Notes: generated by a model not told the origin, from the letters alone. Positions 10,575 through 49,280 are shown, numbered from the stretch's first letter. The stretch is 64,000 nucleotides of DNA from Segetibacter sp. (GCF_025963695.1 NZ_JAOQAH010000030.1:2396-66395); one strand, 5' to 3'. Translations and numbers: made by a program.

Positions 10575-10587
10575 TGTAATAGATCTA

Positions 10588-13634: not shown

Positions 13635-13757
13635 GCGGTCATGGCTTTTATAACAGTTTAATTAAAGGATGGTGATAAGTTGATAAGGTTACTACTAATA
13701 AAAAACTGATCTTTTATGAAAGCTTATTTATTAAGGTGCATTATTCCATTAGCGTTC

Positions 13758-14843: not shown

Positions 14844-14930
14844 CTGAATGCTTTTTAATTTGTTTAAATTGAAGAGCAATCTCATCTCTTGATTGTCTTG
14901 TTAGGGTAGAATGAAAGAGTAAACAAATAT

Positions 14931-15476: not shown

Positions 15477-15593
15477 AATTATTTTCTTTAATTTAGTGGT
15501 TCTTTTAAGAGAATAAGCTTCGCTTAGCTGGGCTACAAGTGGCGCCAGGTTAAGGTTCAACAAAATCTTGCAGTATGTAGGCGGCTGAATAGT

Positions 15594-15716
15594 GGAAGCG
15601 TGTACAAACGATGCGTTACGCTTCCCATTTCCTATCGCCGTTGTTCAACACCGATCTATCAGTTCCCTCAGCTTTTTTGCATTTAAGGGATCTTTATCTT
15701 AAAGAATGGGCTTCGC
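15594..15716 (-). promoter_or_regulatory. Candidate ops-like pause element GGGCGAAGCCC plus a downstream leader hairpin in front of upxY
   Basis: Minus-strand GCGAAGC at 15716-15710 inside GGGC-GAA-GCCC. 8-bp inverted repeat GGAAGCGT (15594-15601) / ACGCTTCC (15618-15625). Both lie in the ~310-nt wzc-upxY spacer. Confidence 0.45.
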
Positions 15717-15787
15717 CCAACCTAGCTACAGTTGGTAGTTAAGCAGAAAGTTTAGAACGAAAATTTTAGGGAAAAGGAAAAAAGTGT

Positions 15788-18130: not shown

Positions 18131-18147
18131 GTCGTTATATTTATAAA

Positions 18148-24427: not shown

Positions 24428-24466
24428 ATATAAGTTCTAAAATTTAGTCGACATTAATTTTATCAA

Positions 24467-27400: not shown

Positions 27401-27484
27401 TATAGCCGTTTCCTGTGCAAAAATTGAAGCGTGTAAAAGCACGAAAGACAACACCATTATAGTATGCTCGTAAAATTTTCTCAT
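24467..27484 (-). CDS. susC: SusC/RagA TonB-dependent transporter (pair 2)
   Basis: Signal peptide, plug motif ILVDGVQR..IESVTVLKDAAA..YGLRAGHGVVLVTT, YGFFPAVSAGWV, DIKYKDI, C-terminal YSFGLRATF. Confidence 0.93.
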   Translation of the reverse strand: MRKFYEHTIMVLSFVLLHASIFAQETAIPLKQFTGFVTDKSKKPVENASIAVQEKNTVLFTDKTGKFTIKAESKDIIIIKKTGFHTKQLELSSFADLNIELDVALIDAGEDDDIEIPFGVRKKREITSSISSYNTANLPQIPMANLINSFSGRIPGLYIQQTDNRPGNDNANIFVRGRSSYGSSAARILVDGVQRDFQDMDLNEIESVTVLKDAAALAWYGLRAGHGVVLVTTRKGSATRSSISLDIQGGVQQVEKIIKPLSSYQFASLYNEARLNDNATPVYDNVALAAYQTGSNQYKYPTNNFVGDFLNKTSSVQRYVLSADGGNSTLRYFVLLSYFDQGGLFKGAKSNDFNSNTGFTRFNFRGNIDFNVNKNLTITLNSGGRSENRLNPGDNANPFLSALYNTPPNAFPIRNENGTYGGTTDFRNNPLGMLKDRGYNTVVDRVLLASLNAKQKLDFLTKGLSAIVYYSHDVSGTYSAGLNRDYEIYDFNTSPTQLFRTKTPLGYRSAAFTNNNRRNEFWTGFDYDRTFGNHSLKATVLGQRYVDASPERLDFRGQGVSGRVDYGYKDKYYVGLVTSYSGSENFPPHKRYGFFPAVSAGWVVTEEDFLKTSNLLTYLKLRASAGKAGSSNIGGNRFPFESFYARNTGGGGYTFGTGFSATPSANESSLGNPEITWETFETVNAGIEIRLFRNSLSLTGDVYKSSRTGILTDAVIPNILGQALGTVNEGQVDSRGIELGMDYTKKVGRFDVSVNGNILFSDDKVIAQNGQNGIPDYQKTIGNIAGSSLLFVSDGLFKDQAEITASPSQSFFGRIIPGDIKYKDIGGITGKPDGIIDNFDRIRVNKRDLPNIYYGFGTAVNFKIFDFSTYWQGVKGKTIDIQGLVNSGPFSFNEETLKRWTPATAETAKYPRVGLTDRGNNTAGSDFWRRSGDYLRLKYIEAGVSLPQKVLSRFHMKKMRFYIGGSNLLTFTKLDIDVDPEIPSAGSGDAYPYLKTYSFGLRATF

Positions 27485-27534
27485 ATAAGTTATCGTCTAT
27501 TTATTAAGATTACTCTTCAATTAATGTTTGTGTA

Positions 27535-29220: not shown

Positions 29221-29241
29221 TATAAATTGAAGTGTTTAGCC

Positions 29242-32200
29242 CTAGAATTGAATGTTCAAGCCGAAGTTGTAGATTTTTGTTACGGGATAGCTAAAGGCAG
29301 GATTGTTGAAAGCTCCCTGGTCGTTAAGCAGCGACGTATTAATTGCATTTTCAGGATCAAGTCCTACGAATTTTGTCCATGTCGCTAAGTTCTGTCCGTT
29401 GAAGTAAGCGCGTATACTTTCTATACCTGCTTTTTTACTGAGCTTTGAAGGAACCAGGAAGGATACTTCTATATTTCTTAGTTTGAGATACGAAGAATTC
29501 TGCAGCAGGAACGAATTTGTTACATAGCTTGGGTTACCACCCGTTGCGCCGGTTCGCATAACCGGCCATGTTGCATTAGTAGGATTTTCGGGAGTCCAAC
29601 GGTCAAACATTTGAGCATAATATTGGTTACGGCCGTTCCCGTCTAATTGCACGTTAGAGCTTACTTTATCAGCTCCTTGCAATAACGCGGACAGCGTAAT
29701 GCTTCTCCAGCTAATGCTTGGTTCTATACCAAACACGTTTTGAGGCACATCGGCATAGCCAATAGCAACTCTATCCTGATCATCTATAACTCCGTCTGCA
29801 TTTGTATCATTATATTTCAAATCACCCGGAATTACCTGGGTACCTACTCTGCTTACCGGACTTTTGTTGATTTCATCAAGTGACTGGTAAAAGCCGATGA
29901 CCTGGTATCCCCGATATTGGCCAATTGGTAGCCCGCTGTTTTTCAAATCTGCTGCAAGATTTAGCGGTTCATCAGTTTTAACTATCTTATTCTTTGCATG
30001 GGTGTATTGAAGATTAAGACTAAATTTCCAATCCTTTGTATTCACTCTGTAACTAACCTCCGCTTCGTACCCGCTATTGTAGTTTTCGCCGTAATTGCTG
30101 AGAGGACGTGTTTCACCATAAATATTTGGTGAAGAATTATTCCGGGATAAGAGTATATCATATCGCTTTTCATCAAACACATCCACATTAACCGACAACT
30201 TACTTTTAAACCAAGAGGTTTCAATTCCAATATTTCTCTTGATCGATTTTTCCCAGCTCACAAAGGGATTGCCAGGCTTGCTGTGCCAAACCACAGGATT
30301 ATTAACAATAGAATTTGGATTTCCAAATTGCACCTGGCTGTTAGGGTTGGTAATCCCTCCTCCTACACCTACGGTACCTCCGCCGTTTGAATATTCATCA
30401 AGGTAAATAAACCGAGTACCACCAACATTTCCATAACCAATAAGCCCATATGAACCACGTATTTTCATGTAATTCAAAACCTTCACGCTTTTCATGAACT
30501 TTTCTTCGGTTAGTGTCCATCCTGCAGAAACTGCCGGAAATAATCCGTAACGCTCGCTTTTCGGATAGTTTTCGGAGCCGTTGTAAGAACCGTTGATTTC
30601 AAAGAAGTATTTGCTCTTGTAATTATAGGTCATTCTTAGCACCAATCCTTCGTTCGCAAAAGGAGCCTGAGCTCCTTCAGCACCCCTTAACTCCCTCTGG
30701 CCAACAAATACCCCTGAAACAGCATGCTGACCGAACTGCCGCGTATAATTAAGCGCGGCCTGTATATTAGTTTTTACGTAACCGGAGCGACCGGTACCTG
30801 GAGCATTCAGGGCATCTTCAAAAGTAGCCCTGCTAACCGTTAATTCTTTAGTACTCTTATCAAGCGTATAGCTTGTGAAAGATCCCGTTTGTAATCTTGC
30901 CCCGCTGATATACGCGTCATACGCAAAAGTGATTTTTGCGCTCAAACCGTTAACGACGCTGTTTAACTTCTGGTCAAGTACAAAGACGCTTTCCAAGGCA
31001 TTATTATCTGTATTAACATAACCACTGCGCTTTAGAATTCCATAAGGGTTAAAAGTGTTTACCCCAAGTGTGCCTATATCTTCAATCTGGTTATAAGTTT
31101 CATCAAGCAATCTCATTTCCGGTGTTGTAGGATTGGTGTATTCAGGAAAGAAAGGAAGGCCCCACGCGGGGATAGCAGTTATCCTGCTTACAAGACCGGC
31201 TACTCCACTTCTTTGCCTGTTAAACAAGTTGCCCTGGCCAGCGTTTCCGACCGGAGAATACCTGTTTTCAAGTCGACCAGCCATTCGAAGACTTAATACG
31301 GTACTACTTGTGAGAGTAAAATCAAGATTCGAACGGAAGTTGTAGCGTGTGTATGAAGGTGTAGTTTTATAACCCGACGGTGTCTTGAAATCTTTCAACA
31401 TACCATCTTCAAAAAGGTATCCTACTGAAACAAAATATTTTGTAAGTCGTGAGCCTCCTGTAAAATTAAGATTATGCTGGTTGCGCGACCATGCGGGTCT
31501 CGTAAGCGCTTTATACCAATTTACGTTCGGATATATTAACGGATCTCCTGTTCCCTCTTTATAAATTTGAAGGTCCTGTGCTGTAAATAGTTTTTTATAG
31601 CCTGCAGGTACAAGGTTGTACTTAATTAAATTTTCTTCCGCTTCGTTATGAAGAAAAGCGCTACGATAAGCGTCGAGGAATTCAGGTAATTCAGTGGGCT
31701 TTACTACACCAACATTACCTGAATAAGACACTTTTGCTTTTCCGGCTTTCCCGGTTTTAGTGGTAATAATAATAACACCATTAGCTCCTTTAATACCAAA
31801 CAAAGCCGTTGACGAAGCATCTTTAAGAACGCTGATAGCCTCAATTTCGTTGGGGTCAATATCACCGAAACCCTGTCTTTCAACACCGTCCACTATTATT
31901 AACGCTGCCGAATTTGCAGAAGCACGCCCGCGGATAAAAATATCTGATCCGTTATCCCCAGGCAATCCTGATCGTTGTTGCGCAAACAAGCCTGGAACCC
32001 TTCCTACGAGTGAATTAGTGGCATCAGACACAGGCGACTTTACTATATCTTTTCCTGAAACAGTACTGATGGCAGCTGTTTGCTCCTTTTTCTTTTGAGT
32101 GCCGTAGCCTATAACAATTACTTCGCTTAACTTATTATTAGCAGGTGTGAGCTGCACGAAAAGATTATTGCTTTTTGCTACTACCACTTCCTTAGTATCA

Positions 32201-32427
32201 TAACCTACAGAACTAAAAACTAATGTAGAACCGGGCGTTGTGTTGATGGAAAAATTACCCGCTTCGTTTGTAGAAGTGCCTGTTCGGGTTCCTTTAATAT
32301 TGATAGAAACTCCAACTAACGACCCACTATCGGAAGAAGCAACTCTTCCAGTTATATAGCGGGTTTGTGCAGAAACGGTAAAAAAAAATAATATGAATAC
32401 AACTGAAAGGAGTTGAAATCTCATCAT
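29242..32427 (-). CDS. susC: SusC/RagA TonB-dependent transporter (pair 1)
   Basis: CarboxypepD-reg-like N-domain (GTSTNEAGNFSI, LVFSSVGY), EVIVIGYGTQKK, IEAISVLKDASSTALFGIKGANGVIIITT, YGLFPAVSAGW, C-terminal YNFGLNIQF. Confidence 0.95.
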   Translation of the reverse strand: MMRFQLLSVVFILFFFTVSAQTRYITGRVASSDSGSLVGVSINIKGTRTGTSTNEAGNFSINTTPGSTLVFSSVGYDTKEVVVAKSNNLFVQLTPANNKLSEVIVIGYGTQKKKEQTAAISTVSGKDIVKSPVSDATNSLVGRVPGLFAQQRSGLPGDNGSDIFIRGRASANSAALIIVDGVERQGFGDIDPNEIEAISVLKDASSTALFGIKGANGVIIITTKTGKAGKAKVSYSGNVGVVKPTELPEFLDAYRSAFLHNEAEENLIKYNLVPAGYKKLFTAQDLQIYKEGTGDPLIYPNVNWYKALTRPAWSRNQHNLNFTGGSRLTKYFVSVGYLFEDGMLKDFKTPSGYKTTPSYTRYNFRSNLDFTLTSSTVLSLRMAGRLENRYSPVGNAGQGNLFNRQRSGVAGLVSRITAIPAWGLPFFPEYTNPTTPEMRLLDETYNQIEDIGTLGVNTFNPYGILKRSGYVNTDNNALESVFVLDQKLNSVVNGLSAKITFAYDAYISGARLQTGSFTSYTLDKSTKELTVSRATFEDALNAPGTGRSGYVKTNIQAALNYTRQFGQHAVSGVFVGQRELRGAEGAQAPFANEGLVLRMTYNYKSKYFFEINGSYNGSENYPKSERYGLFPAVSAGWTLTEEKFMKSVKVLNYMKIRGSYGLIGYGNVGGTRFIYLDEYSNGGGTVGVGGGITNPNSQVQFGNPNSIVNNPVVWHSKPGNPFVSWEKSIKRNIGIETSWFKSKLSVNVDVFDEKRYDILLSRNNSSPNIYGETRPLSNYGENYNSGYEAEVSYRVNTKDWKFSLNLQYTHAKNKIVKTDEPLNLAADLKNSGLPIGQYRGYQVIGFYQSLDEINKSPVSRVGTQVIPGDLKYNDTNADGVIDDQDRVAIGYADVPQNVFGIEPSISWRSITLSALLQGADKVSSNVQLDGNGRNQYYAQMFDRWTPENPTNATWPVMRTGATGGNPSYVTNSFLLQNSSYLKLRNIEVSFLVPSKLSKKAGIESIRAYFNGQNLATWTKFVGLDPENAINTSLLNDQGAFNNPAFSYPVTKIYNFGLNIQF

Positions 32428-32562
32428 GACAAGCAAATTTGATTTTAAATGTATGCTATATAATTCGGTACAAAAAAATTAACGAGTAATTGTTAAAACG
32501 CTCTCAATCAACTTATTTGTAATGTGTTTTGGACGGGGTATTTTAAAAACAACGTGCTACTG

Positions 32563-32996: not shown

Positions 32997-33081
32997 CGGA
33001 GAGTTAGGGATTCGAACCCCAGGACCTGTTACAGTCAACAGTTTTCAAGACTGCCGCAATCGACCGCTCTGCCAACTCTCC
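32997..33081 (-). tRNA. tRNA-Ser (anticodon TGA), CCA not encoded
   Basis: GGAGAGTTGGCAGAGCGGTCGATTGCGGCAGTC-TTGAAA-ACTGTT, long variable arm, GGTTCGAATCCC T-loop, CTCTCCG acceptor end; 85 nt. Confidence 0.97.
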
Positions 33082-34846: not shown

Positions 34847-35590
34847 ATGGAAAAAATGAACGATTTAAAAGCTTTATTAGCACATGAAGTGCAGGATCTT
34901 ATTTCGGTAGAAGACCAGATAATCGAAGCGATGCCGGCAATGATTGCAAAGGCACAAAATGGTGAATTAAAAAAAGCACTCGAGCAACATTTGTCGGTAA
35001 CAGAAAAACAAAGAACGAGGCTGGATGAAGTTCAGAAGCTAGTTAATGGAGGAGCAAGCGAAGAAAACAAAGGATTTTTGTCAGGCTTATTTGGAGCCAT
35101 AACCGGCGGAGAAAAGTGTAAAGGAATGGAAGGAATCATAAGTGAAGGCGAAAAAATTATGCGCGCCGACATGGATGTGGATGTGAAAGATGCAGCAATA
35201 ATAGCCTGCGCTCAAAAAATAGAGCACTATGAAATATGCGGTTACGGTACTGCCCGAGCTTATGCAATGGAACTTGGCCTGAAAGAAGCTGAGAGTCTGC
35301 TACGCCAAACATTAGACGAAGAATACTTCGCCGATAACTTGCTGACCAGGCTTGCCTACTCAGGTATAAACGAGGATGCAGAAACTACAGATGAAACAAA
35401 AGCAGGTGGCGCCGCTGCAAAAAGTAATAACGCGCCTAAAAAAGCAGCGGCAAAAAAGAAAGTTGAACCAAAAAAGGCTGCTACTCCTAACATTAACAAA
35501 GCGGCAGCAAAAGCTGAAAACGGCAAAGCTGCAAGTAAGAAAGTGGCGGCAAAAACCTCGGCGCCTAAAAAGGCAAGTGGTAAAAAATAA
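34847..35590 (+). CDS. yciF: YciE/YciF (DUF892) ferritin-like protein with a Lys/Ala-rich C-terminal tail
   Basis: EVQDLISVEDQI, LEQHL..T..Q..RL, CKGMEGIISEGE, DAAIIACAQKIEHYEICGYGT, LRQTLDEE...D..LT; tail rich in PKKAAAK-type units. Confidence 0.88.
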   Translation: MEKMNDLKALLAHEVQDLISVEDQIIEAMPAMIAKAQNGELKKALEQHLSVTEKQRTRLDEVQKLVNGGASEENKGFLSGLFGAITGGEKCKGMEGIISEGEKIMRADMDVDVKDAAIIACAQKIEHYEICGYGTARAYAMELGLKEAESLLRQTLDEEYFADNLLTRLAYSGINEDAETTDETKAGGAAAKSNNAPKKAAAKKKVEPKKAATPNINKAAAKAENGKAASKKVAAKTSAPKKASGKK

Positions 35591-36576: not shown

Positions 36577-37017
36577 TCACCCTTTAGTCGGATAACCTTT
36601 GTCTATCCAATCAGTTTTAATATTCTTTGGCAGGTTGAGTAGCTGGTAGTTGGTAAATTTCATTTCTTTCAGGGCATCTATAGCAGGCCTAACATTAGGG
36701 CAATGTTCAAAAGGGCAACAGCCGCAATAGACCACAACTTGTGTTTCTTTCGATAAACCACTTAACTCCTTTTTTAGCTTATCCATATTTTCTTTGTCCT
36801 TTCCCATTCCTATGTCAATCGAATGAGGAATAGGCGCCCCCGGTCCCACGCTAAATATTACAGGCACTTCTTTATTGGCTGTGATTTTTTGGGCCAGTTC
36901 TGCTGGTTGAATCAGTTGCTTGCTTGTCCAATTTTCAGGGTTCTGGGCGAATGTTTTTTCCATCGAGAAAAAAGCTAACAACACAAAGAAGAAGGTGAAA
37001 GGCTTACGTTTTTTCAT
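36577..37017 (-). CDS. Exported rhodanese-like domain protein with a CGCCPxxxC motif
   Basis: Signal peptide MKKRKPFTFFFVLLAFFSMEKTFAQ; IPHSIDIG, VVVYCGCCPFEHCPNVRPA, DWIDKGYP. Confidence 0.75.
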   Translation of the reverse strand: MKKRKPFTFFFVLLAFFSMEKTFAQNPENWTSKQLIQPAELAQKITANKEVPVIFSVGPGAPIPHSIDIGMGKDKENMDKLKKELSGLSKETQVVVYCGCCPFEHCPNVRPAIDALKEMKFTNYQLLNLPKNIKTDWIDKGYPTKG

Positions 37018-37267
37018 GTTCAATAAGTTAATTTACCAGCTAAAGTAAAAGGTAATTTTAGATAAAGATCGAGATTGCCAAAGACTTTAACTAATTCAGC
37101 AACTATTAGAACAACTCTTTTTTGATGCCGCCATCTTGCTACTATTAAACATTTTTGCGTCGCACTCTTGTACAGTTTCTTCTTTACTCGCCAAAATACC
37201 CACATCACTAATTAATTTCCTGCCACTATAAAACCTTTTACTTTTGTCGCAAGACTCAAAAGTAAAA

Positions 37268-38245
37268 ATGGATCTATTACGTGTATCAGGAATAAATAAG
37301 CGATCGGAAGGTTTTGCATTAAATAATATCAGCTTCAATTTAAAAAGAGGGCAGAAACTTTCTATTGCCGGAGAGACAGGTTCGGGGAAAAGTACATTAT
37401 TGAAAATCATAGCAGGGTTGGTTCAGCCCGAATCGGGGTCGATAGAATTTGAGAATGAAAAGGTTTTAGGCCCCGAAGAGAAATTAATACCAGGGCACCC
37501 CCGCATTGCTTATTTATCTCAACATTTTGAACTGCGAAATAATTATAAGGTTGAAGAGTTGTTGGATATGGCGAATAAATTGCCTGTTGATGAAGCTGAA
37601 ACGATTTACGAAGTGTGCCAGATCGAACACCTTTTAAAACGCAAGACGTCAGAACTATCAGGCGGCGAAAAACAACGTATTGCAACAGCCAAGCTATTGA
37701 TAACTTCTCCAAAGCTGCTATTGCTCGACGAGCCCTACTCTAACCTTGACATGGGGCACAAGAAGATCCTGAAGTCCGTTATCAATGACATCACTAAAAA
37801 GCTCTCTATTACCTGTATCATGGTTTCACATGACCCACCTGAAACCCTATCTTGGGCAGACGAGATTATGATAATGGAAGCTGGACATATCATCCAGGCA
37901 GGAACACCGGAGGAGGTTTACAGAAAACCACACAGTAAGTACGTGGCAAGCCTTTTTGGTGATTATAACATAATCCGCCACCAGGAGGCAACCCGTATGG
38001 GTGCCTCAACAGAGAACATAATTGGCAAAAATATTTTTACGAGACCAGAGGATTATAAAATTGTACAACATGAAGAGCAAGCCGTTATTGGCGAAGTTGA
38101 AAAAATCTGTTTTTTAGGTAGCTATTATCAAATAGAAGTTAGCATTGATGAAACCTTAATTACAGTAAATGCATGTGAATGTACAGTTGCAAAGGGAGAC
38201 CTGGTATATCTTTCGCTTCAACTGAATGAGCCCTGGTATCTTTAA
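37268..38245 (+). CDS. Stand-alone ABC transporter ATP-binding protein (PotA/CysA-like, C-terminal TOBE-like domain)
   Basis: GETGSGKST Walker A, LSGGEKQR signature, LLLLDEP Walker B, VSHD. No permease adjacent. Confidence 0.88.
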   Translation: MDLLRVSGINKRSEGFALNNISFNLKRGQKLSIAGETGSGKSTLLKIIAGLVQPESGSIEFENEKVLGPEEKLIPGHPRIAYLSQHFELRNNYKVEELLDMANKLPVDEAETIYEVCQIEHLLKRKTSELSGGEKQRIATAKLLITSPKLLLLDEPYSNLDMGHKKILKSVINDITKKLSITCIMVSHDPPETLSWADEIMIMEAGHIIQAGTPEEVYRKPHSKYVASLFGDYNIIRHQEATRMGASTENIIGKNIFTRPEDYKIVQHEEQAVIGEVEKICFLGSYYQIEVSIDETLITVNACECTVAKGDLVYLSLQLNEPWYL

Positions 38246-38420
38246 AAGTATACTAAATCCAAACCTAAGAAAACTGTGTATATAGTATCGAAACGTTTAG
38301 ATAATGGTTAAACAAGAACGTTTCGAACCGAAGGAATCAATAAGCTTACCATTGCTAAAGTTTATGGTTCAAAACCTGCGCCCACAATTGTACCGGCTTT
38401 AGGAGACTTAAAACTAAAAG

Positions 38421-39710
38421 CTATAATACATGTTGCTGTCTCATCGGTAGTACAATAATAAAGTTCGAACCTTTGCCTTCGGTGCTTTTTGCAATAATAC
38501 TACCGTTATGCTTTTCTATAATCCTTTTGGTAATAGCGAGCCCAATTCCTGTGCCTTCGTATTTATCTTTTGTGTGTAGCCTTTTAAATAGGGTAAAGAC
38601 GTTCGACATATATTTCTCATCGAAGCCAATACCGTTGTCTTTTATATTTATGCAGGCGTAGGGGCCTGCTGTGTCTGGCGAACTATCATAAACACTATCA
38701 CAAATCCTCGAAGCGGAAATGGTTATAATGGGACTAACGCCAGGCCTTGAAAACTTCAATGCATTACTAATAACGTTTTGAAATACCTGCCTTATTTGTC
38801 CAGGGTTTACTTCTATAACCGGAATCTCTTCAATAGTTATCGTAGCTTTCTTTTCTTCAATTATTAATTCAAAATCTTTCAACAACTCTGCAATCAGCAG
38901 TTTTAAATCTGTAAGCTCAAACTTATTGTCTTTATCCGATAAACGCGAGAATGAAAGAATATCGTGTATAAGCACCCTCATTCTTTCTGATGAACTAATG
39001 ATTTTTTGCAAGTAAGTACCCGCAGAAGCCGAAAACTGGGCAGCATGTTTTTCCTTTAAAAGATTTGAGTAAATCTGAATTTTACGCAATGGTTCCTGCA
39101 AATCATGGGAAGCTACAGAAGCAAATTGTTGAAGATCGTGGTTGCTGATTTCGAGAGCGTGGTTAATCTCTTCGAGTTGTTGATTATTTAGCTTCAATTG
39201 TCTCTGCGTCTCTTTTTGCTCTGTGAGATCTGTGAGAATAATGCTTAATGATACACCTTCGTCCAATTCGAGGGTTGTAAAGGATAGTTGAAATTCTACG
39301 TATCGCTGCTGATTAATTAAAGAAATTTCGCCCTTGCAATCCTGCCCCCAACCCCTTTTAAAAAGTGCATTGAACTGATCAACAAAAGCCGGAGCAATGA
39401 AATTAGAGAACGGAAGGCCGAGCACTTTTGACATCGGCAGGTTCAACATTGAGGCAAATTGGGTGTTGCTGTAAACAATAATTCCCTCGCGGTTTAAGGT
39501 AACTGCTCCCTCATTCATCTTTTCGATGAAGAGGCGATAAGTTTGGTCGGCTGTTTTTAAAGTATACAATTCGTGCCCCTTTTCTCCAAGTACCACAAGC
39601 GCATCAACCCGGCCGGTCCTAATGGCATCAATTGTATCGTTTGCCTCCTCAAGCTGCTGACGCAGATCTGTTACTTCATTTAAAAGTTCTTCGTAAGTTT
39701 TTGCTTTCAT
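38421..39710 (-). CDS. PAS-domain sensor histidine kinase of the kai operon
   Basis: N-terminal coil IDAIRTGRVDALVV, PAS (MNEGAVTLNREGIIVYSN), H-box ASHDLQEPLRKI, N-box NVISNALKF, DNGIGF, GTGIGLAI. Confidence 0.92.
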   Translation of the reverse strand: MKAKTYEELLNEVTDLRQQLEEANDTIDAIRTGRVDALVVLGEKGHELYTLKTADQTYRLFIEKMNEGAVTLNREGIIVYSNTQFASMLNLPMSKVLGLPFSNFIAPAFVDQFNALFKRGWGQDCKGEISLINQQRYVEFQLSFTTLELDEGVSLSIILTDLTEQKETQRQLKLNNQQLEEINHALEISNHDLQQFASVASHDLQEPLRKIQIYSNLLKEKHAAQFSASAGTYLQKIISSSERMRVLIHDILSFSRLSDKDNKFELTDLKLLIAELLKDFELIIEEKKATITIEEIPVIEVNPGQIRQVFQNVISNALKFSRPGVSPIITISASRICDSVYDSSPDTAGPYACINIKDNGIGFDEKYMSNVFTLFKRLHTKDKYEGTGIGLAITKRIIEKHNGSIIAKSTEGKGSNFIIVLPMRQQHVL

Positions 39711-39716
39711 CTGCAA

Positions 39717-40034
39717 CTATACATTGATACCTAAACCCCGAAGAACCCTGTTTGTATCAGACATGTCGCCAATAAGTCTTCTCTCGGGTAAAGGCAATGT
39801 TTTAATAAGAAGGGGTAGCGCGATTAGTTGTTTCGTTTCAGCTATGTCCTTTTGTTGGTACACATCAATAATGTCCAAAGTATATCTTCCTTTAATATGG
39901 GTTTCGCAAATTTGTTTCAAATTGGTTATAGCCCTTACAGAATTGGAAGAAGCTCCAATAACATATAAGCGAAGTACAAACTCTATTTGTTCTTCATTAT
40001 TTTTTTCTAACTCTTCGGGTTCTTCGCTGGCCAT
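39717..40034 (-). CDS. kaiB: KaiB-family protein (divergent paralogue)
   Basis: FVLRLYVIGASSNSVRAITNL..ICE, LDIIDV, ALPLLIKTLPLPERRLIGDMS. Confidence 0.9.
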   Translation of the reverse strand: MASEEPEELEKNNEEQIEFVLRLYVIGASSNSVRAITNLKQICETHIKGRYTLDIIDVYQQKDIAETKQLIALPLLIKTLPLPERRLIGDMSDTNRVLRGLGINV

Positions 40035-40035
40035 A

Positions 40036-40323
40036 CTATTGTTTTGCAGGACGGATGTTCAAGCCAACCAAAACCTTTTCTTCATTAGATAGGTCGCCTA
40101 TTATTTTACGTATCGGTTCAGGAACTTTTTTTACTAATGTGGGTATAGCAAATATCTGGTCACCTTCAGCTAATTGAGGTTGTACCAGCAAGTCTATGAC
40201 CTCAATAACATATTTACCTTTCAGATGCTCTTCACACAATTTATTGAGGTTACTTATTGCCGCTACCGATTTAGATGTTTTACCGGCCACATATAACCTT
40301 AATTCGTATTTTTCTTCGTTCAT
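40036..40323 (-). CDS. kaiB: KaiB-family protein (canonical-like)
   Basis: [57 protein letters not shown] 40323 preferred (ORF extends to 40365, inside kaiC). Confidence 0.93.
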
Positions 40324-40333
40324 CGACTCCGTT

Positions 40334-42040
40334 TTACTTTCCGGATCCGTTACTATTTCCATCATGCCTTTTTTTAATTAATTCTTCGCGATTCTTTTCC
40401 ATTACCTCTTTTCTCAATTCTTCTTCTATATAGCTTTTATTCAGCTCATCAGTCACTGATTCAAATTCTTCTTTCAGACTTTCTATTTTAGCCTGCAACA
40501 CATTTCTCTTCCTTTCTATTTCCTTGTCCTTTCTTGTTACTGCATGTGTTCGCAATACAACCCCTGTTTCCTCCATCAATTGTTGAGCCTCCCTTGCAGA
40601 TCCTGTTAAAACGCCTTCAGGTCCCAGGTAAACATCAACCAGTTGTACCCCGTCGTCGGAGATTACAAATTCACGCACCTGGTTAGAATGACGCATTCCC
40701 CTAGATTTCATAATATACATTCCGCGGTTTCTCTCGCCGTTATTTTCAATATCCCGTACCAGTAGCCACGCATCTACCAGGGATGATACGCCTTCGTCCG
40801 TTTGTTCGTTAACAACGGTATTTAAGGTTAATGCTGTAAACATTACGGTAACCTGTTCTGCCTGTAAAAAATCTATCAGCCTTATCAACATTCCTTTTAC
40901 TTCGCTTACAGACCCCACAGTAATCAGGTTCGTTATGGGATCAAGTATGATGGCGGACGGCTTAAATCTTTTAACCATTTTATGAATAGTCAAAAGGTGC
41001 ATCTCCAGGCCATTTAAAGTTGGTCTCGACGCATTGAATTGAAGGTATCCATTATCAATATGCTGTTGTAGATCGATACCAATGGAACGCATATTCCTTA
41101 TAATCTGCTGCGGCGATTCTTCGAAGGCAAAGTAAAGGCACCGTTCTTTTCGCTTACTGGTTTCATTAGCGAAATATGCAGCAATACTGGTCTTTCCTGT
41201 ACCAGCAGTACCAGATACCAGAATACTGCTTCCCCTAAAGAAACCACGCCCTTCTAGCATTTGGTCCAGCGACTCTACGCCAGATGAAACTCTTTCCGAA
41301 GAAACAGGATGTTCAAGTCTAAGCGCAGTAATAGGCAATACTGAAATTCCCTGCTCATCTATTAAAAATGGGTATTCATTAGTTCCATGAACTGATCCCC
41401 TATATTTCACAATTCTTAAAAGCCTGGTTGAGATCTGGTTAATAACGCGATGATCCAATAAAATTACACAGTCAGAAACATACTCTTCAAGTCCCTGCCT
41501 TGTAAGGAAACCTTCACCTTTTTCGCCGGTGATGATAGCCGTAACACCTTTTTCTTTAAGCCATTGAAACAATCTTCGCAGCTCTGCACGCAATATTGCC
41601 ATGTTTGATAAGCCTGTAAACAAGTTCTCAATCGTATCCAACACAACGCGTTTTGCTTTTATGCTGTCAATAGCATACCCGAGTCTTATAAACAGTCCAT
41701 CCAAATCATACTCGCCCGTTTCTTCTATTTCGCTTCGCTCAACATGTACGTAATCCACTTTAATTTTTTTATCCCTTTGTAGCCTGTCAAGGTCAAAACC
41801 CAGCGATGCAACGTTTATAGCTAATTCCTCTGCTTTCTCTTCAAAAGCCATAAAAACACCTGGCTCATCAAATTCTAACGCACCTTTCACAATAAACTCA
41901 AGCGAAAACAATGTTTTTCCGCACCCTGCCGCACCACAAATAAGGGTAGGTCTGCCAGTAGGTAGCCCTCCACCTGTTATTTCATCTAACCCGGCTATTC
42001 CACTTCGTGTTTTGGAAAGAGACTTTTTAAGTTGTTCCAT
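40334..42040 (-). CDS. kaiC: Double-domain KaiC ATPase/autokinase with a long C-terminal coiled coil
   Basis: [17 protein letters not shown]; [18 protein letters not shown]; predicted phospho-site segment GVSSLVDAW; helical tail [20 protein letters not shown]. Confidence 0.95.
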
Positions 42041-42259
42041 ATTTTCTTTTAGGTAAAACATTTATTTAACTTGTAGCCACTGGCAACATAAAAAATATCA
42101 TGCCTTTACTGCCCCCGTACTTGATGTGAAATAGGTTTGCAACTTAAATTAAGGTGGCAAGTATAAATAAAACCGACGTCTTCAACCAAGTTTCTCTACA
42201 CAATAGCTGCTATTTCTCTTTTGGAATATTTTCTGGTTACCAGCACAAGTTTTTCATTG

Positions 42260-42288
42260 TCATCATTGTTGCGTCGCACACTTGTACC
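42260..42288 (-). repeat. Dispersed mini-hairpin repeat, copy B
   Basis: GGTACAAGTGTGCGACGCAACAATGATGA; identical (29/29) to copy C. Confidence 0.85.
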
Positions 42289-42405
42289 TGCAGAATTAAA
42301 ATCAGCACAAGTATTACTTACTTGTAATGACAGTAATAAAGACCATCTAAATTTGTGAGAAGGGAATTGCTTCGTTCTTGAAATGGAGGAAGCATAATGC
42401 CGGCA

Positions 42406-43386
42406 TTACCTCTTTGGCTGATGCATCATCAATATATCTATCAACTCTTGCACCTCTGAAGCTGGCCTGTCTTCTACCAGGTAGAAATGATTACCGCCCT
42501 TATCGTTCCATGTATTGCTTCCCTTTTCCGTTACCTCAATAGTTCCGGCCACTAATTTATAGTAAGGTTTATAACCGGCTATAGCTACAAGTACTGCTGT
42601 CTCATCCCAGCTCATCCTTCCTGCTTTGTCCTGCGGATCAAGGGGAATACTAATGCGGAATACATCTTTTACAGGACTGTTTCGGATAGTACTGTTATTT
42701 ATCAGCGGCAACCCTGTTTTTATTTTTTGGCCTATTTCCCAACCGCTAAAAATGATAGGGGTACTCCAGTTTTCAAACACATATTTTCCTGAAGCGGCAT
42801 CCTGGTCAATATTAAATTCGCTTCCCGAAGGAAAGCGGCCTGCCATACTAACCAATGATTTCACTTTTTTTGCTACCAGTTGCATTCCCGTCAGCGGTGA
42901 ATATTTATCAGGCCGGGACTTAAGCAGATTAGCCAGGTTAGTCAGGAAACCAACAGTAACGACCGTCACACTTTTGTCGGGTTGCTTTGCTAATACTTTC
43001 CGATATACCTCAACAGCATCAGGAACATCATTATTATTTTTCATGGCATGGGGATACTTGCTAATCAAAGTATCCGTCCAATGTTGAAAGTCTTTTTTTG
43101 TTAGTGCCGATCCCTTCGGAACTCCAATAGGCAAACCCGGCCTTTTGAAGTAAGTATTGAAAACGTTTATTACTGCAGCCACTCCCTCATATTTTGTACT
43201 GGCTACTGTTGCCAAAATTTTAGCCTTGCCCTCATCTGCAAAAGCGTGTAACAACGCAATAGCGCCTGCATCGTCATAATCGGGCCCCATATCAGTGTCA
43301 AAAATTACAGGGACAGCTTTCTTGCCTTGCGCATGCATAACAGAAGCAGAAAGTAACAATGCATTTAGTAGAATAATCTTTATCAT
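42406..43386 (-). CDS. Exported nucleoside hydrolase (IU-NH family)
   Basis: Signal peptide; VIFDTDMGPDYDD Ca-binding motif, VGFLTNLA, SEFNI, RMSWDETAVL. Confidence 0.88.
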   Translation of the reverse strand: MIKIILLNALLLSASVMHAQGKKAVPVIFDTDMGPDYDDAGAIALLHAFADEGKAKILATVASTKYEGVAAVINVFNTYFKRPGLPIGVPKGSALTKKDFQHWTDTLISKYPHAMKNNNDVPDAVEVYRKVLAKQPDKSVTVVTVGFLTNLANLLKSRPDKYSPLTGMQLVAKKVKSLVSMAGRFPSGSEFNIDQDAASGKYVFENWSTPIIFSGWEIGQKIKTGLPLINNSTIRNSPVKDVFRISIPLDPQDKAGRMSWDETAVLVAIAGYKPYYKLVAGTIEVTEKGSNTWNDKGGNHFYLVEDRPASEVQELIDILMMHQPKR

Positions 43387-45017: not shown

Positions 45018-45126
45018 GAAGCAATTTAACCGCTTACAATTGAATAATGAACAGGATAATGGTTGCTTTGAGTTTTGCTGCCATTTTGCTTTGGATAGAA
45101 CTCCCCGGTGTTGTATAAAAACCACT

Positions 45127-45800
45127 ATGGGACGTTAAAAACAAACGAACCGTCGAACATTCTACCAACAAAATGTTCCGCTGGAACATTTACATGTGGT
45201 ACCAGGAACATGCGTACACACTTTAGGTACAAGAACCACCGTATAGAGTCATCTTGCTTTAATGTCCCGTAGGGACATGTGGTAGGTAGAGGAAAGGTTG
45301 TTGTGCTTACGTGATATAGGGAACGTTTGGTGCAGAATGAAATACATATCAAATCACCAGGCGTCCCAAATGGGACGTTAAAAACAAACGAACCGTCAAA
45401 CATTCTACCAACAAAATGTTCCGCTGGAACATTTACATGTGGTACCAGGAACATGCGAGCACACTTTAGGTACAAGAACCACCGCATAGACTCATCTTGC
45501 TTTAATGTCCCGTAGGGACATGTGGTAGGTAGAGGAAAGGTTGTTGTGTGGACGTGATATAGGGAAAGTTTGGTGCAGAATGAAATACATATCAAATCAC
45601 CAGGCGTCCCAAATGGGACGTTAAAACCAACGAGCCGTCAAACATCTACCAACAAATTGTTCCGCTGGAACATTTAGATGTGGTACCAGGAAGATACGTA
45701 CACGCTGTAGATACAAAAACCACCGTATAAATACATCTTGCTTTAATGTCCCGTAGGGACATGTGGTAGGTAGAGGAAAGGTTGTTGTGTGGACGTGATA
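45127..45800. repeat. Tandem array of ~2.8 copies of a 243-bp unit built from REP-like palindromes (REPIN/BIME-like)
   Basis: Units start at 45127, 45370 and 45613. Each has TCTACC-N6-ATGTTCC(GCT)GGAACAT and an inverted partner ATGTCCC(GTA)GGGACAT-N6-GGTAGA, forming 130-bp modules at 45161-45290, 45404-45533 and 45645-45774. CGTCCC(AAAT)GGGACG lies at the unit junctions. Confidence 0.92.
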
Positions 45801-45802
45801 TC

Positions 45803-45831
45803 GGTACAAGTGTGCGACGCAACAATGATGA
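45803..45831 (+). repeat. Dispersed mini-hairpin repeat, copy C
   Basis: GGTACAAGTGTGCGACGCAACAATGATGA, abutting the truncated third 243-bp unit. Confidence 0.85.
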
Positions 45832-46022
45832 TTTGAAAAACAAATGCCGGTAACAAAAAAAAACAACCCAGCGCAAAGATCAAAAATGAAAACCGTTGCT
45901 TCTACCAGAGGCAATACCGTAGCATTTCAATAAGCGTTATTTGTAAACCTCTATATTTGATTAACAAAAAGAGCTAACGGTTGCAAGATAACTTTGAGCA
46001 TTCGTTGTAGTGGTAGTAATTG

Positions 46023-46403
46023 ATGAAAACAAACCTTATTTTAATTGGCTTAGGTGGTGCGCTTGGCAGTATATTAAGATACCTGACTTCATTGTACGTA
46101 GCAAGGCACTTTTCTACTATGATTTTTCCCTATGGCACTTTTGCAGTTAATGTAATTGGTTGTATAATTATTGGGATAATTTATGGAATGTCTGAAAGAT
46201 TTCAGTGGCTGACTCCTACCCTACGATTATTTCTGGTGACAGGCTTTTGCGGAGGATTTACAACTTTTTCCGCTTTTGCATATGAGAATTTGCAGCTACT
46301 ACAAGGTTCAAACTTTACCGGGTTTGCGCTTTATTCTATTTTAAGTTTCATTGTCTGCATTGCCGCAGTTTATGCAGGACTACTATTAGTAAAGAGCATT
46401 TAA
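46023..46403 (+). CDS. crcB: Fluoride channel Fluc/CrcB
   Basis: GGALGSILRY, FPYGTFAVNVIGC, GFCGGFTTFSAF; four TM helices. Confidence 0.95.
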   Translation: MKTNLILIGLGGALGSILRYLTSLYVARHFSTMIFPYGTFAVNVIGCIIIGIIYGMSERFQWLTPTLRLFLVTGFCGGFTTFSAFAYENLQLLQGSNFTGFALYSILSFIVCIAAVYAGLLLVKSI

Positions 46404-46463: not shown

Positions 46464-49280
46464 TTATTCAATTGGTAAAAATATTTTGAAAGTTGCTCCC
46501 TGCCCCGGTTCGCTCTCCGCTTTGATAAATCCTTTATGATTTTCGATTACCTTTCTTACAATGGCGAGACCAATGCCGGTGCCTTCATACTCTGCCTTTC
46601 CATGTAGTCTTTGAAACATTTTAAAGATCTTATCTGCGTAAGCTTGTTCAAAACCTATCCCATTATCAGAAACTTTAAGCAGGTTATACAGCTTCTCCGG
46701 AGAAACATTGTGAAGATCATCGCCTTGAATGTCTTCTCCCTTTACTACCGATGAGGTAATGTGGATTTCAGGACGGATGTCGGGTCGGCTAAACTTAAGA
46801 GCGTTTGTAATAAGATTCTGAAATACTTGTTGTATCTGCCTTCTATGTCCGGTTATTACAGGCAGCGGGCCAACTATTACCCGGGCATTTTTTTCCGCTA
46901 CAATCACTTCAAGATCCTCTAAAACCAGGGCTACTTTTTTATCGAGGTTAATTTCTTCGAAATTGGTATTTCCGTTTGAGGTGTGCGAAAATTCTAAAAG
47001 ATCATTAATAAGTAGCTGCATGCGTTCAGTGGCTTTCTCCATCCGCTGAAAGTAGTGTTGATCCTTTTCCAACAGTCTTACTCCCAGGTTATTTTTCAAC
47101 CTTTCAGAAAAAGTGCGGATCTTCCTGATAGGTTCTTTAAGGTCGTGCGAAGCTGCATATGCGAAATCCTCCAGATTCGCATTGGATCGTTTAAGTTCCT
47201 GGATCGTACGTTCCAGCTCAAGCTGGGATTGCTTGTTTACAGTAACATCGGTGAATATGTGAATGAGGTGATTTTCGTCCATCCGGGAAATAGTGAGTTC
47301 AAGCCATTTATTAATTGCCCCAAGGTGATGTTGAATGATAGTAGGCTCACCCGACGCTAACGTGTTTAAGCAAGCGCGTCCATACGGGGAACTAAAAATA
47401 TCAGGATCAAGATCACGGGCTCTTTGATTCAAATAAATGTCTTTAGGAATACCTACATATTTTACTGCTGACTCATTGGCAAGAATTGTTCTGGCATCAT
47501 ATACCCTACCTTCTTCATCCCTGATCATTTCACTCACCGAAATACCATTGGACGAGTTTGTTAAAATATTATCTAACAAACTTTTCTGGCTTTCAAGATC
47601 CCTGGTACGCTCTACTACCCTTTCTTCTAACAAATCGGTATTCTTCTTCTGATCATCAATGTCTGTGCAGGTGCCATACCATTTATAAATATTGCCGCCG
47701 TCATCTTTTAATGGCAATGCCCTTCCAAGAAACCAGCGATATTGGCCATCAAATCGTTTAAAACGATATTCGATTTCGTAAGGATCGCCTGTTTTCAGAC
47801 TGTGCCTCCAAACCTCCCAGGCCTTTTCCTGGTCATCGGGGTGCAAAACTGCGTTCCATCCAGTATCTTTTGATTGTTCATAAGTTAAGCCTGTGTAATC
47901 GTACCATCGCTTGTTATAAAACTCGTGATAGCCATCCGCTTTTGTTGACCAGATTATCTGGGGCATAAAGTCTGTTACGAACTTAAATTCCTTATTGCTC
48001 TCCTCTACCTTCATTCTCGCCAGCACCTGCTCGGTAACTTCCGTTGCAACCACCATGATGCCTACATTCCCTCCATTTTCCTGCACCGGCGTAAAAGCGA
48101 GTTTGAAGTACCGCTCTTCCATTAAAGTATCTCGCATCAGGGGAACAAGACGCTCGTAATCAAAGTACGGTTCTCCCGTTTTATATACTCTACGGAAAAT
48201 ATCAATGACGGGTTGGCCCTTTAGTTCGGGAAGAACGTTTAGCAGTGGTTTTCCAATAATCTCGCTGGTCTTATCAATCAGCGCCAGCATACTTTGATTA
48301 ACGGTATCAAAGATTAAATCTTCCCCTTTAAAAATCAGCATTGCCACAGGAGCAGTATTGATGATATTACGGAAGTTTTTATCTTTTTGGATTAACAGTT
48401 CTTCCGTCTTCTTCCTGTCGGTAATATCCTGCATTGACCCAAGCATCCGGTACGGCTTGCCATCCTGGTTGTGCAAAATATATCCTCTATCCAGTACCCT
48501 TGCGTAGCTGCCATCCTTTCTACCGAAGCGGTATTCTGCCAACCATTGGCTACCACCCTTGTCTATTACGTCGTGTATGCTTTGAATTACCCACTCCCGG
48601 TCTTCCGGATGAAGCCCTATGTACCAGGAATCTATAGTAGGATAAATCTCTTCTTGTGCGTAACCAAAAAGTTCTTTAAATCCCTCGTTCCACCACATCT
48701 TATTAGTCAAAAGGTTCCAATCCCAAACCGCATCATGGGTAGCTTTGGCGATAAGTTCAAATCGTTCTTTAGCTTCGAATATGTCTCGCGATTGTTCTTT
48801 TAAGCGCCTGTCCAATTCCCGGTTTAGCTGTTGCAATTCTTCAAGTTCTTCCGGGCTAATAACCAAAGGGTCTGAAGCGGCGGGTTTACGAAATTCTACC
48901 TGGCCACTCTCGTGAACCAGGGTTTCGACTGTTGAAAGTAATTCCACCAGCTCATCCGAAATTAGCTCCATCTCATCCAGTCCTACCCTGGCTTCGGCTA
49001 CCTTGCCAGTCTTATACAAATCAACCAATTTTCTTGCAACCGTATGAAGGGTAGTGTGCACTTGCTCCAACTTGTGCATTTCAGGAATGTTTGCATAAGC
49101 ACTTAGGGCATGTCCGTAAATCCATTGCCCAACTGCACAATCGTAGTGAGAAATTACAGGAGCTGCGTCCAGGTCAGCTCCATAAAGAATAGAGCGCAAT
49201 CTTGTTTTAAACAGAAGGTGCTTTACACGCGCCTGCTCAAAATCAAATTTAATCCAACGTCCCTCCTGTTCTTTGTGCAT
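46464..49280 (-). CDS. Cytoplasmic sensor histidine kinase: CZB zinc-binding domain, four PAS domains, HisKA, HATPase
   Basis: CZB ligands VKH, HYDCAVGQW, VHTTLH; PAS_3-like LHPEDR and LHPDDQ; PAS_4-like GKPLLNVLPEL; H-box ASHDLKEPIRKI; NLITNALKF; DNGIGF; GTGIGLAI. Confidence 0.9.
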   Translation of the reverse strand: MHKEQEGRWIKFDFEQARVKHLLFKTRLRSILYGADLDAAPVISHYDCAVGQWIYGHALSAYANIPEMHKLEQVHTTLHTVARKLVDLYKTGKVAEARVGLDEMELISDELVELLSTVETLVHESGQVEFRKPAASDPLVISPEELEELQQLNRELDRRLKEQSRDIFEAKERFELIAKATHDAVWDWNLLTNKMWWNEGFKELFGYAQEEIYPTIDSWYIGLHPEDREWVIQSIHDVIDKGGSQWLAEYRFGRKDGSYARVLDRGYILHNQDGKPYRMLGSMQDITDRKKTEELLIQKDKNFRNIINTAPVAMLIFKGEDLIFDTVNQSMLALIDKTSEIIGKPLLNVLPELKGQPVIDIFRRVYKTGEPYFDYERLVPLMRDTLMEERYFKLAFTPVQENGGNVGIMVVATEVTEQVLARMKVEESNKEFKFVTDFMPQIIWSTKADGYHEFYNKRWYDYTGLTYEQSKDTGWNAVLHPDDQEKAWEVWRHSLKTGDPYEIEYRFKRFDGQYRWFLGRALPLKDDGGNIYKWYGTCTDIDDQKKNTDLLEERVVERTRDLESQKSLLDNILTNSSNGISVSEMIRDEEGRVYDARTILANESAVKYVGIPKDIYLNQRARDLDPDIFSSPYGRACLNTLASGEPTIIQHHLGAINKWLELTISRMDENHLIHIFTDVTVNKQSQLELERTIQELKRSNANLEDFAYAASHDLKEPIRKIRTFSERLKNNLGVRLLEKDQHYFQRMEKATERMQLLINDLLEFSHTSNGNTNFEEINLDKKVALVLEDLEVIVAEKNARVIVGPLPVITGHRRQIQQVFQNLITNALKFSRPDIRPEIHITSSVVKGEDIQGDDLHNVSPEKLYNLLKVSDNGIGFEQAYADKIFKMFQRLHGKAEYEGTGIGLAIVRKVIENHKGFIKAESEPGQGATFKIFLPIE

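Follow-up and report, generated by a model that had tools for sequence, protein, structure and literature searches.

The 64,000-nucleotide stretch of Segetibacter sp. DNA analysed here (NZ_JAOQAH010000030.1:2396-66395, hereafter the window) carries a kai operon made of four co-directional minus-strand open reading frames (ORFs; 38421-42061 in the translated 64-kb window), namely kaiC, two kaiB genes (kaiB1 and kaiB2) and a gene for a PAS-containing histidine kinase. The product of this operon is probably a KaiBC phospho-switch that works without KaiA, in the manner of the Rhodobacter hourglass, combined with a second, specialised KaiB and with a kinase coupled through its PAS module. Gene content, motif conservation, synteny and fold predictions are direct results of this work, and from them we infer all of the biochemistry. 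A preliminary description of the window had seen a KaiA-less KaiBC system with a PAS kinase of its own and had cited the Rhodobacter hourglass, and homology sustains an assignment to that type: KaiC matches the Rhodobacter sphaeroides KaiC structure 8DBA with an E value of 7e-191 and has the Ser-Ser phosphosites and long tail of that type. The system as such is already known, since a Bacteroidetes group with only KaiB2/KaiC2 was remarked in 2017 (PMC5520375), public annotations already name these proteins KaiB and KaiC, and purified KaiC of Flavobacterium johnsoniae was arrhythmic in vitro with Synechococcus elongatus KaiA plus its own or S. elongatus KaiB (PMC12081879). The earlier statement that no functional characterisation existed in Bacteroidota is therefore outdated. 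In the literature that we searched, we did not find a description of the pairing of a ground-state-type with a fold-switched-type KaiB in one operon, nor of the cross-phylum conservation of a helix and PAS module joined to swapped transmitters.

Operon structure and KaiC

With ATG start codons, the operon is exactly as compact as first described, with gaps of 10, 1 and 6 nucleotides (nt) between kaiC and kaiB1, kaiB1 and kaiB2, and kaiB2 and the kinase gene, respectively. The kaiC gene (40334..42040) encodes 568 amino acids (aa), or 575 aa from an alternative ATG at 42061, and ends with a TAA stop codon at 40334-40336. The ATG of kaiB1 (40036..40323, 95 aa) lies 10 nt further on, at 40323; alternative upstream ATGs at 40362 and 40365 would produce a protein of 108-109 aa and an overlap with kaiC. 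The TAG stop codon of kaiB1 is separated by 1 nt from the ATG of kaiB2 at 40034 (39717..40034, 105 aa), and that of kaiB2, also TAG, by 6 nt from the ATG of the kinase gene at 39710 (38421..39710, 429 aa; alternative TTG at 39716). No terminator-like hairpin was detected between these genes in a scan of positions 38000-42500 and the gene next downstream of the kinase is convergent, so that the four genes look like a single operon. Upstream of kaiC lies an ORF-free intergenic region of 344 nt (42062..42405) that presumably holds the promoter and 5' leader. A whole-window scan found no Rfam family near the operon or in this upstream region, and a sigma-70 promoter scan of 38000-42500 returned fewer promoter-like sites than shuffled sequences did, the consensus being uninformative for Bacteroidota.

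Judged by profile matches, the family assignments of the four proteins are unambiguous and far beyond chance. KaiC matches the Pfam family PF06745 twice (E 3.8e-106) and the NCBIfam model NF006799 with 745.7 bits (cut-off 408). Each of the two small proteins matches the KaiB family PF07689 (E 5e-28 and 97.1 bits for KaiB1, E 1.4e-22 and 79.6 bits for KaiB2), and the kinase contains the Pfam domains PAS_9, HisKA (47.1 bits) and HATPase_c (80.8 bits). In agreement with the preliminary description, no KaiA domain was detected in any window ORF of at least 120 aa; the kaiA gene that characterises the canonical KaiABC system was not found within the 64-kb window.

The best solved relatives of the double-domain KaiC are the structures of R. 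sphaeroides KaiC (KaiC-RS; 8DBA, 8FWI and 8DB3), with 639 bits versus 329 bits for S. elongatus KaiC. Its identity with KaiC-RS is 54.6% over 538 columns (65% in the CI domain, 52% in CII and 24% in the C-terminal tail), and it scores under the cut-off of the cyanobacterial equivalog TIGR02655 (353.6 versus 546.25). Both ATPase domains are intact, as had been claimed, with Walker A motifs GAAGCGKT (CI) and GTAGTGKT (CII), catalytic residues FEE in both domains, and Walker B motifs VVLDT and IILDP. In the alignment of 81 orthologues on which our KaiC residue counts are based, there is no variation (81/81) in the Lys/Thr of Walker A, in either Glu-Glu pair or in either Asp of Walker B. The predicted Ser-Ser phosphosite, S426/S427 in the 575-aa numbering (codons at 40781..40786), lies in the motif TDEGVSSL and aligns with S413/S414 of KaiC-RS, the residues mutated to EE in the phosphomimic structure 8FWI; serine is kept in 80/81 and 81/81 orthologues at the two sites. 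Such Ser-Ser sites are a hallmark of KaiC2 and, together with a C-terminal extension some 50 aa longer than that of KaiC1, characterise the KaiC2 / KaiC-RS clade (PMC5520375, PMC10076222).

The window protein has this extension as well. It is 568-575 aa long versus 519 aa in S. elongatus KaiC chains, and its alignment ends at residue 490 with S. elongatus KaiC and at residue 552 with 8DBA. The approximately 89 aa that follow GSAREA (40337..40603) align with the 8DBA tail and presumably have a coiled-coil dimerisation and regulatory function; tails of 71-112 aa are found in 79 of the 81 orthologues. The tail is rich in E, K, R and L and free of Pro, and its best heptad register has 50% L/I/V/M/F at the a/d positions, a weak signal (shuffle p ~0.05). 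KaiC would likely form a dodecamer through this region. In the column of the inhibitory residue R385 of KaiC-SE (K375 in the ancestral KaiC-eta), the window KaiC has Thr, and T or S is found in 70/81 orthologues; Thr/Ser at this position has been proposed to denote a de-repressed KaiC (bioRxiv 10.64898/2026.04.01.715469). By its sequence traits, KaiC is thus of the KaiC2 / Rhodobacter KaiC-RS type (group IV).

Two KaiB proteins with opposite predicted folds

More than 580 relatives emerged from a scan limited to one genome per species, and the best 80 of them (60-81% identity) were used to compare loci. Nearly all of these 80 belong to Bacteroidota (Chitinophagaceae, Spirosoma, Dyadobacter, Mucilaginibacter, Pedobacter, Flavobacterium and metagenome-assembled genomes (MAGs) of Bacteroidales), and 73 have the order kaiC-kaiB-kaiB, usually followed by the PAS kinase gene, the seven exceptions being other phyla or contig ends. 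The first kaiB is nearer to the window KaiB1 in 73/73 loci and the second nearer to KaiB2 in 54/73. By contrast, all 26 alphaproteobacterial relatives of KaiC-RS (from Paracoccus, Falsirhodobacter, Rhizobium, Bradyrhizobium and others) combine kaiC with one kaiB and a kinase gene, so that a second KaiB sets the Bacteroidota operon apart. Among named organisms, Segetibacter species have the Kai proteins nearest to those of the window (S. aerophilus KaiB1 is 96% and KaiB2 83% identical), and an identical KaiC with the same neighbours occurs on metagenome contigs from the Joint Genome Institute (JGI).

The preliminary description counted two KaiB paralogues. The number is correct, but treating them as simple paralogues overlooked that opposite default folds are predicted for them. 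KaiB1 and KaiB2 are 49% identical to each other, and KaiB1 is the more conserved (84-96% identity in 55 relatives, versus 60-85% for KaiB2). KaiB1 is an orthologue of Rhodobacter KaiB, its best solved relative being R. sphaeroides KaiB (KaiB-RS) bound to KaiC (8FWJ_M), whereas the divergent KaiB2 is more distant from 8FWJ_M and relatively nearer to Legionella Lpp1115 (4KUN; 66.9 bits versus 55.6 for KaiB1). Both score under the cut-off of 145.3 of the cyanobacterial KaiB equivalog TIGR02654, with 100 and 87.2 bits for KaiB1 and KaiB2, respectively. A neighbour-joining tree contains a clean KaiB1 clade, which the single KaiBs of other phyla join, and gives no clear answer on the monophyly of KaiB2.

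The prediction of opposite folds comes in the first place from residues known to set the fold of KaiB. KaiB-RS, 89% of which is in the ground state, becomes 86% fold-switched with the substitutions I68R/V83D/N84R(A), and Arg is enriched at position 68 in KaiB sequence clusters predicted to be fold-switched (PMC10808063). We read these positions, in KaiB-RS numbering, in 74 KaiB1 orthologues, 74 KaiB2 orthologues and 34 single KaiBs from other phyla. The window KaiB1 has I, V and G at 68, 83 and 84, and its orthologues are uniform (I/V/M/L at 68, V at 83 and G at 84, each in 74/74); the single KaiBs are likewise all hydrophobic at 68 and 83. The window KaiB2 has E at 68 and R at 83. Among its orthologues, position 68 is polar or charged in 58/74 (35 E, 11 R, 6 Q, 5 K) and position 83 in 61/74 (31 K, 18 R), both positions are polar in 50/74 and at least one of them in 69/74, while position 84 is G in 47/74 and I in 16/74. 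The two window KaiBs share P58, P65 and P67, whose cis/trans isomerisation is rate-limiting for KaiB fold switching (PMC11185700) and which are kept in 74/74, 74/74 and 69-74/74 orthologues, respectively. The equivalent of S. elongatus R22, a residue of the KaiB-KaiB interface implicated in cooperative binding (bioRxiv 10.1101/2020.06.17.158394), is Arg in the window KaiB2 and in 44/74 of its orthologues, and A, T or K in KaiB1 and KaiB-RS.

AlphaFold2 (AF2) models built from subfamily-only alignments and compared with solved structures by Foldseek give the same picture. The KaiB1 model has the ground-state topology (beta-alpha-beta ... alpha(69-82)-beta(85-92)); its top 17 matches in the PDB are all ground-state KaiB crystals (template modelling (TM) scores of 0.73-0.81, 82-95 columns), and its alignment to fold-switched structures is limited to the N-terminal half. 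The KaiB2 model has a thioredoxin-like topology (beta-alpha-beta-alpha-beta ... C-terminal helix(94-100)) and its top 11 matches are all fold-switched KaiBs (4KUN, 5JYT, 8FWJ_M, 5JWO/R/Q and 8UBH; TM 0.68-0.85, 81-88 columns), versus about 55 columns only with ground-state crystals. From residues and models together, KaiB1 is predicted to be a ground-state fold-switcher like the Rhodobacter KaiB, and KaiB2 to be a KaiB of the fold-switched (FS) type, locked in the fold-switched state.

The PAS kinase and its output

The fourth gene encodes a cytoplasmic PAS-HisKA-HATPase_c sensor histidine kinase in which the H, N, G1 and G2 boxes are intact, with a Cph1-like H-box (SHDLQEPLR) and the motifs DNGIGF and GTGIGL legible. 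Its match to the SasA-type model NF006800 covers the kinase core only (87.7 bits, cut-off 342), and its N-terminus consists of a helix and a PAS domain, not of the KaiB-like thioredoxin domain of SasA-type kinases. No LOV-type NCRFLQ motif is visible in the translation of the PAS domain, which thus offers no pointer to a flavin or light sensor. The N-terminal helix and PAS module (aa 1-176, 39183..39710) is homologous and collinear (e.g. q15-169 to t15-169) with the N-terminus of the gene after kaiB; this holds for 105 of 113 loci, with E values from 1e-12 to 1e-33 and the signature AIRxGxVDALVV...YTL..AD..YR.FIE.M..GA...G.I.Y.N. These homologues include HWE kinases of Alphaproteobacteria, a hybrid kinase of Planctomycetota, proteins of Acidobacteriota and others, and stand-alone PAS proteins of 235-250 aa. 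The kinase cores in these other phyla are unrelated. The N-terminal ~170 residues, leader helix and PAS, thus remain constant while the transmitter varies by clade: Bacteroidota have HisKA/HATPase_c, to which Sphingobacteriaceae add a further PAS domain; Alphaproteobacteria have HWE_HK, Gemmataceae have a hybrid kinase that includes a receiver domain, and four Bacteroidales MAGs have no kinase at all. In these MAGs (Bacteroidales/Rikenellaceae loci L060, L072, L073 and L078) the gene after kaiB encodes the helix and PAS only (235-250 aa) and the second KaiB is hydrophobic at 68 and 83; they represent a different operon sub-variant.

The C-terminal half of the window kinase has no match to HWE kinases, and the module has none to the other PAS-rich kinases of the compared loci or to the multi-PAS kinase of 938 aa in the window (at E up to 10 in the window). 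The latter (46464-49280, minus strand) is a cytoplasmic sensor kinase with an N-terminal zinc-binding CZB domain, several PAS domains and a Cph1-like H-box (SHDLKEPIR). In Pseudomonas, the PAS domain of a kinase encoded beside KaiC suffices for KaiC binding (bioRxiv 10.1101/2022.01.26.477890). Given its cross-phylum conservation, its lack of matches to the other PAS kinases compared and this Pseudomonas precedent, the helix and PAS module is the most likely candidate for a reader of the KaiC/KaiB state.

A different division of labour, in which KaiB2 would be a thioredoxin-like dock that brings the kinase to the CI ring and KaiB1 alone would regulate KaiC, amounts to a SasA split over two genes. 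It would account for the constant position of kaiB2 immediately before the PAS gene (6 nt apart in the window), both KaiBs match the SasA-type NF006800 weakly, and the fold of the KaiB2 model is that of the SasA N-domain (6X61 and 1T4Y, TM 0.52-0.66). However, fold-switched KaiBs are better matches to this model (TM 0.68-0.85), and KaiB2 scores 87 bits with true KaiBs and 30 bits with the SasA model, whose cut-off is 342. No KaiB-kinase fusion was seen in the 113 loci. Moreover, clades with a single KaiB retain the PAS module and the Pseudomonas PAS domain needs no KaiB for its direct binding to KaiC (bioRxiv 10.1101/2022.01.26.477890), so that docking of the kinase does not need KaiB2. We rank this arrangement low and consider it unlikely, and retain the PAS module as the candidate reader.

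What the kinase would phosphorylate is less apparent in the window. The preliminary description spoke of a built-in two-component output; the kinase is there, but searches with CheY (phmmer), with a profile of 28 operon-linked regulators and with tblastn (E up to 10) revealed no receiver domain, response regulator or remnant of one in the 64-kb window. Among the 65 related loci that bear a kinase, 31 encode a single-domain receiver protein of ~135 aa directly after it, including all Flavobacterium loci and several of Chitinophagaceae and Cytophagales. The window has lost this gene altogether. In the closest MAG relative, from Segetibacter sp. (locus L003, 4150-4554), which is also the nearest relative to retain it, the regulator reads IIHYQNMP versus IILDQNMP in its orthologues and has apparently lost the phospho-acceptor Asp; this replacement of LD by HY suggests gene decay in the lineage of the window.

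Proposed mechanism and known relatives

KaiA-free autophosphorylation and ATP/ADP-dependent, KaiB-accelerated dephosphorylation are known only for KaiC-RS (PMC10076222), and the mechanism that we propose is modelled on it. KaiC would assemble through its long C-terminal tail, probably as a tail-to-tail dodecamer, and this would leave the A-loop exposed and allow KaiA-free autophosphorylation on the Ser-Ser pair at high ATP. When the ATP/ADP ratio drops, fold-switched KaiB would bind to the CI ring, raise the ATPase activity and promote dephosphorylation of KaiC by the ATP-synthase route, such that the phosphorylation level of KaiC would report the time spent in a low-energy state. KaiB1 would be the slow component, in the ground state at rest and limited in its fold switch by the three conserved prolines. 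KaiB2, predicted to be pre-switched, would bind without lag; it could bind or compete at once at the site for KaiB on CI, nucleate KaiB1, or serve as a bridge to the kinase, and its role is the least certain step of the model. In cyanobacteria, a fold-locked KaiB and the SasA thioredoxin domain are known to recruit KaiB cooperatively at low dose and to compete with it at high dose (bioRxiv 10.1101/2020.06.17.158394). Finally, the kinase would sense the KaiC/KaiB state through its helix and PAS module and pass the signal to a single-domain response regulator encoded elsewhere in the genome.

Several points weigh against this hourglass model. The dodecamer is not established, the tail being 24% identical to the coiled coil of KaiC-RS with a weak heptad signal, and the output route is incomplete given that the window has no response regulator. 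The polar signature is absent in five KaiB2 orthologues (four from Bacteroidales MAGs and one from Limnocylindria), and the confidence of the AF2 models is modest, with a mean pLDDT of 68 for KaiB1 and 64 for KaiB2. The behaviour of AF2 on KaiB is itself debated, its predictions being known to vary with the alignment and perhaps with memorised structures. With such modest confidence and debated behaviour, the residue pattern in 74 orthologue pairs outweighs the models. The binding of KaiB-RS to KaiC-RS is non-cooperative (PMC10076222), and nucleation by KaiB2 may therefore not carry over to this type of system. Lastly, the arrhythmic in vitro behaviour of the F. johnsoniae KaiC (PMC12081879) is compatible with an hourglass but is no proof of time-keeping.

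This arrhythmic behaviour (PMC12081879) also fits an energy-state or stress switch without time-keeping, where KaiC phosphorylation would track ATP/ADP or redox and gate the kinase, with the KaiBs only tuning sensitivity, as has been proposed for the stress-linked KaiC homologues of Legionella and Pseudomonas. The background cited in the preliminary description proved accurate, both for the ATP/ADP hourglass of Rhodobacter (PMC10076222) and for the stress links, documented in Legionella and Pseudomonas (PMC5520375, bioRxiv 10.1101/2022.01.26.477890). KaiC2-type homologues of heterotrophs are tied to oxidative, salt and osmotic stress, not to rhythms (PMC5520375; bioRxiv 10.1101/2022.01.26.477890), and the KaiC-RS ATPase is fast and not temperature-compensated (PMC10076222). 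A fold-locked KaiB2 would, in addition, free at least one KaiB from the slow step. Nevertheless, KaiB1 keeps every feature of a slow fold-switcher at 84-96% identity, which would be hard to explain if delay were irrelevant, and the neighbourhood of stress genes, as shown below, is not conserved. Such a switch, which would share its biochemistry with the hourglass and differ from it mainly in physiology, is in our view possible but doubtful.

At the other extreme, the operon might encode a self-sustained, KaiA-free oscillator, with delayed feedback arising from competition of KaiB2 with KaiB1 or the kinase, or from their sequestration. Three Kai-type proteins are indeed conserved together in 73 loci from several Bacteroidota orders, and their opposite predicted default folds would let two proteins bind one site with very different kinetics; moreover, we found no sign in the literature of a test of KaiC with KaiB1 and KaiB2 together, the Flavobacterium KaiC having been assayed with S. 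elongatus KaiA and one KaiB set. However, 0% of group IV KaiCs were rhythmic in vitro, KaiC-RS-type enzymes are fast and not temperature-compensated (PMC10076222), and there is no sign of a component that would activate phosphorylation in a phase-dependent manner, which makes autonomous oscillation highly improbable. We would grant a slender chance to a more general version, a three-protein timer of KaiC, ground-state KaiB1 and fold-locked KaiB2, with KaiB2 taking the role of KaiA or of the SasA thioredoxin domain by competition or nucleation on CI and producing a delay or a rhythm in non-photosynthetic Bacteroidota. The hourglass-type phospho-switch remains the reading that we favour.

The surroundings of the operon had been taken as part of its biology, the kai genes being described as embedded among stress genes, but this context is incidental. 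The genes for an aldo-keto reductase, a DUF892 (YciF-like) protein, an isochorismatase, a nucleoside hydrolase and RmuC occur beside kai genes in 0-2 of the 80 loci, and this lack of synteny indicates that a stress island is not part of the kai system. The window is otherwise an ordinary Bacteroidota chromosome segment with an exopolysaccharide/capsule cluster, two SusC/SusD pairs, an amylase, PGI and Lgt. The cluster is large (1333-18933 and 22787-32436, followed by the two SusC/SusD pairs) and includes genes for a sugar transferase, UDP-glucose dehydrogenase, glycosyltransferases, Asn-synthase-like, Wzy-, Wzx- and Wza-like proteins, a Wzz/tyrosine-kinase and a NusG-family regulator. The DUF892 protein (34847-35590, plus strand) carries a histone-H1-like C-terminal tail of ~70 residues rich in Lys, Ala and Pro, and a secreted-looking protein of 148 aa (36577-37023, minus strand) has a CGCCPFEHCP motif and no Pfam match and is conserved, along with its neighbourhood, on the JGI contigs L081 and L082. 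Between rmuC and crcB, a tandem repeat with a 243-bp unit (45127-45801, 2.8 copies, 93% matches) is covered by two ORFs (45125-45595 and 45621-45914) that encode the same repeated peptide, also without Pfam match. The sole Rfam match in the window is an 85-nt tRNA (32997-33081, minus strand, 52.7 bits); this window scan detected no fluoride riboswitch 5' of crcB (46020-46403).

Chronobiology still asks what KaiBC systems do in bacteria that do not photosynthesise, and the operon described here is the standard Bacteroidota form, shared by Chitinophagaceae, Cytophagales, Sphingobacteriaceae and Flavobacterium; some of these are accessible to genetics. If KaiB2 is naturally fold-locked beside a fold-switching KaiB1, the operon would constitute a natural experiment on the contribution of the slow switch to timing, and the constant PAS module with its changing kinase type is a concrete candidate for the readout of KaiC in bacteria without SasA and CikA. 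Should these predictions fail, it would be one more annotated kaiBC operon.

Among known systems, the closest is the KaiBC of Rhodobacter (Cereibacter) sphaeroides (8DBA, 8FWI, 8FWJ; Pitsawong et al. 2023, PMC10076222), which shares the double-domain KaiC with Ser-Ser sites, intact CI and CII catalysis residues and a long tail, the absence of KaiA, and a KaiB orthologous to KaiB1 with the same ground-state signature and three prolines. In its alphaproteobacterial relatives, the gene after kaiC-kaiB has the same helix and PAS N-terminus. The Bacteroidota operon differs by the second, predicted fold-locked KaiB between kaiB1 and the kinase gene (73/73 loci versus 0/26 in Alphaproteobacteria), by a HisKA/HATPase_c instead of an HWE kinase core, by a tail that is 24% identical, and by its host, here a non-phototrophic relative of Chitinophagaceae for which a day/night ATP cue like that of a phototroph is not an obvious input. 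With the KaiABC-SasA/CikA/RpaA system of S. elongatus it has in common the KaiC and KaiB folds, the binding of fold-switched KaiB on CI, as proposed here, and a histidine kinase as putative output. There, the N-domain of SasA, a mimic of fold-switched KaiB, occupies the same site on KaiC, whereas the window kinase is predicted to dock by its PAS module and not by a fused KaiB-like domain; the window also has no KaiA and no RpaA-type regulator, Ser-Ser instead of Ser-Thr sites, and scores under the equivalog cut-offs. Natural fold-switched KaiBs are represented by Legionella pneumophila Lpp1115 (4KUN) and Thermosynechococcus KaiB-TV-4 (8UBH), on which, together with KaiC-bound KaiB, the KaiB2 model superposes best, and pockets of the KaiB tree that favour the FS state are documented (PMC10808063). 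In contrast with these two proteins, the FS-type KaiB2 is encoded in the same operon as a ground-state-type KaiB1 and one KaiC. Finally, the KaiC-like system of Pseudomonas (Terrettaz et al., bioRxiv 10.1101/2022.01.26.477890), which has a stress-related phenotype, also combines kaiC with a PAS histidine kinase and often a single-domain response regulator, but KaiB is absent there, whereas the Bacteroidota operon has two.

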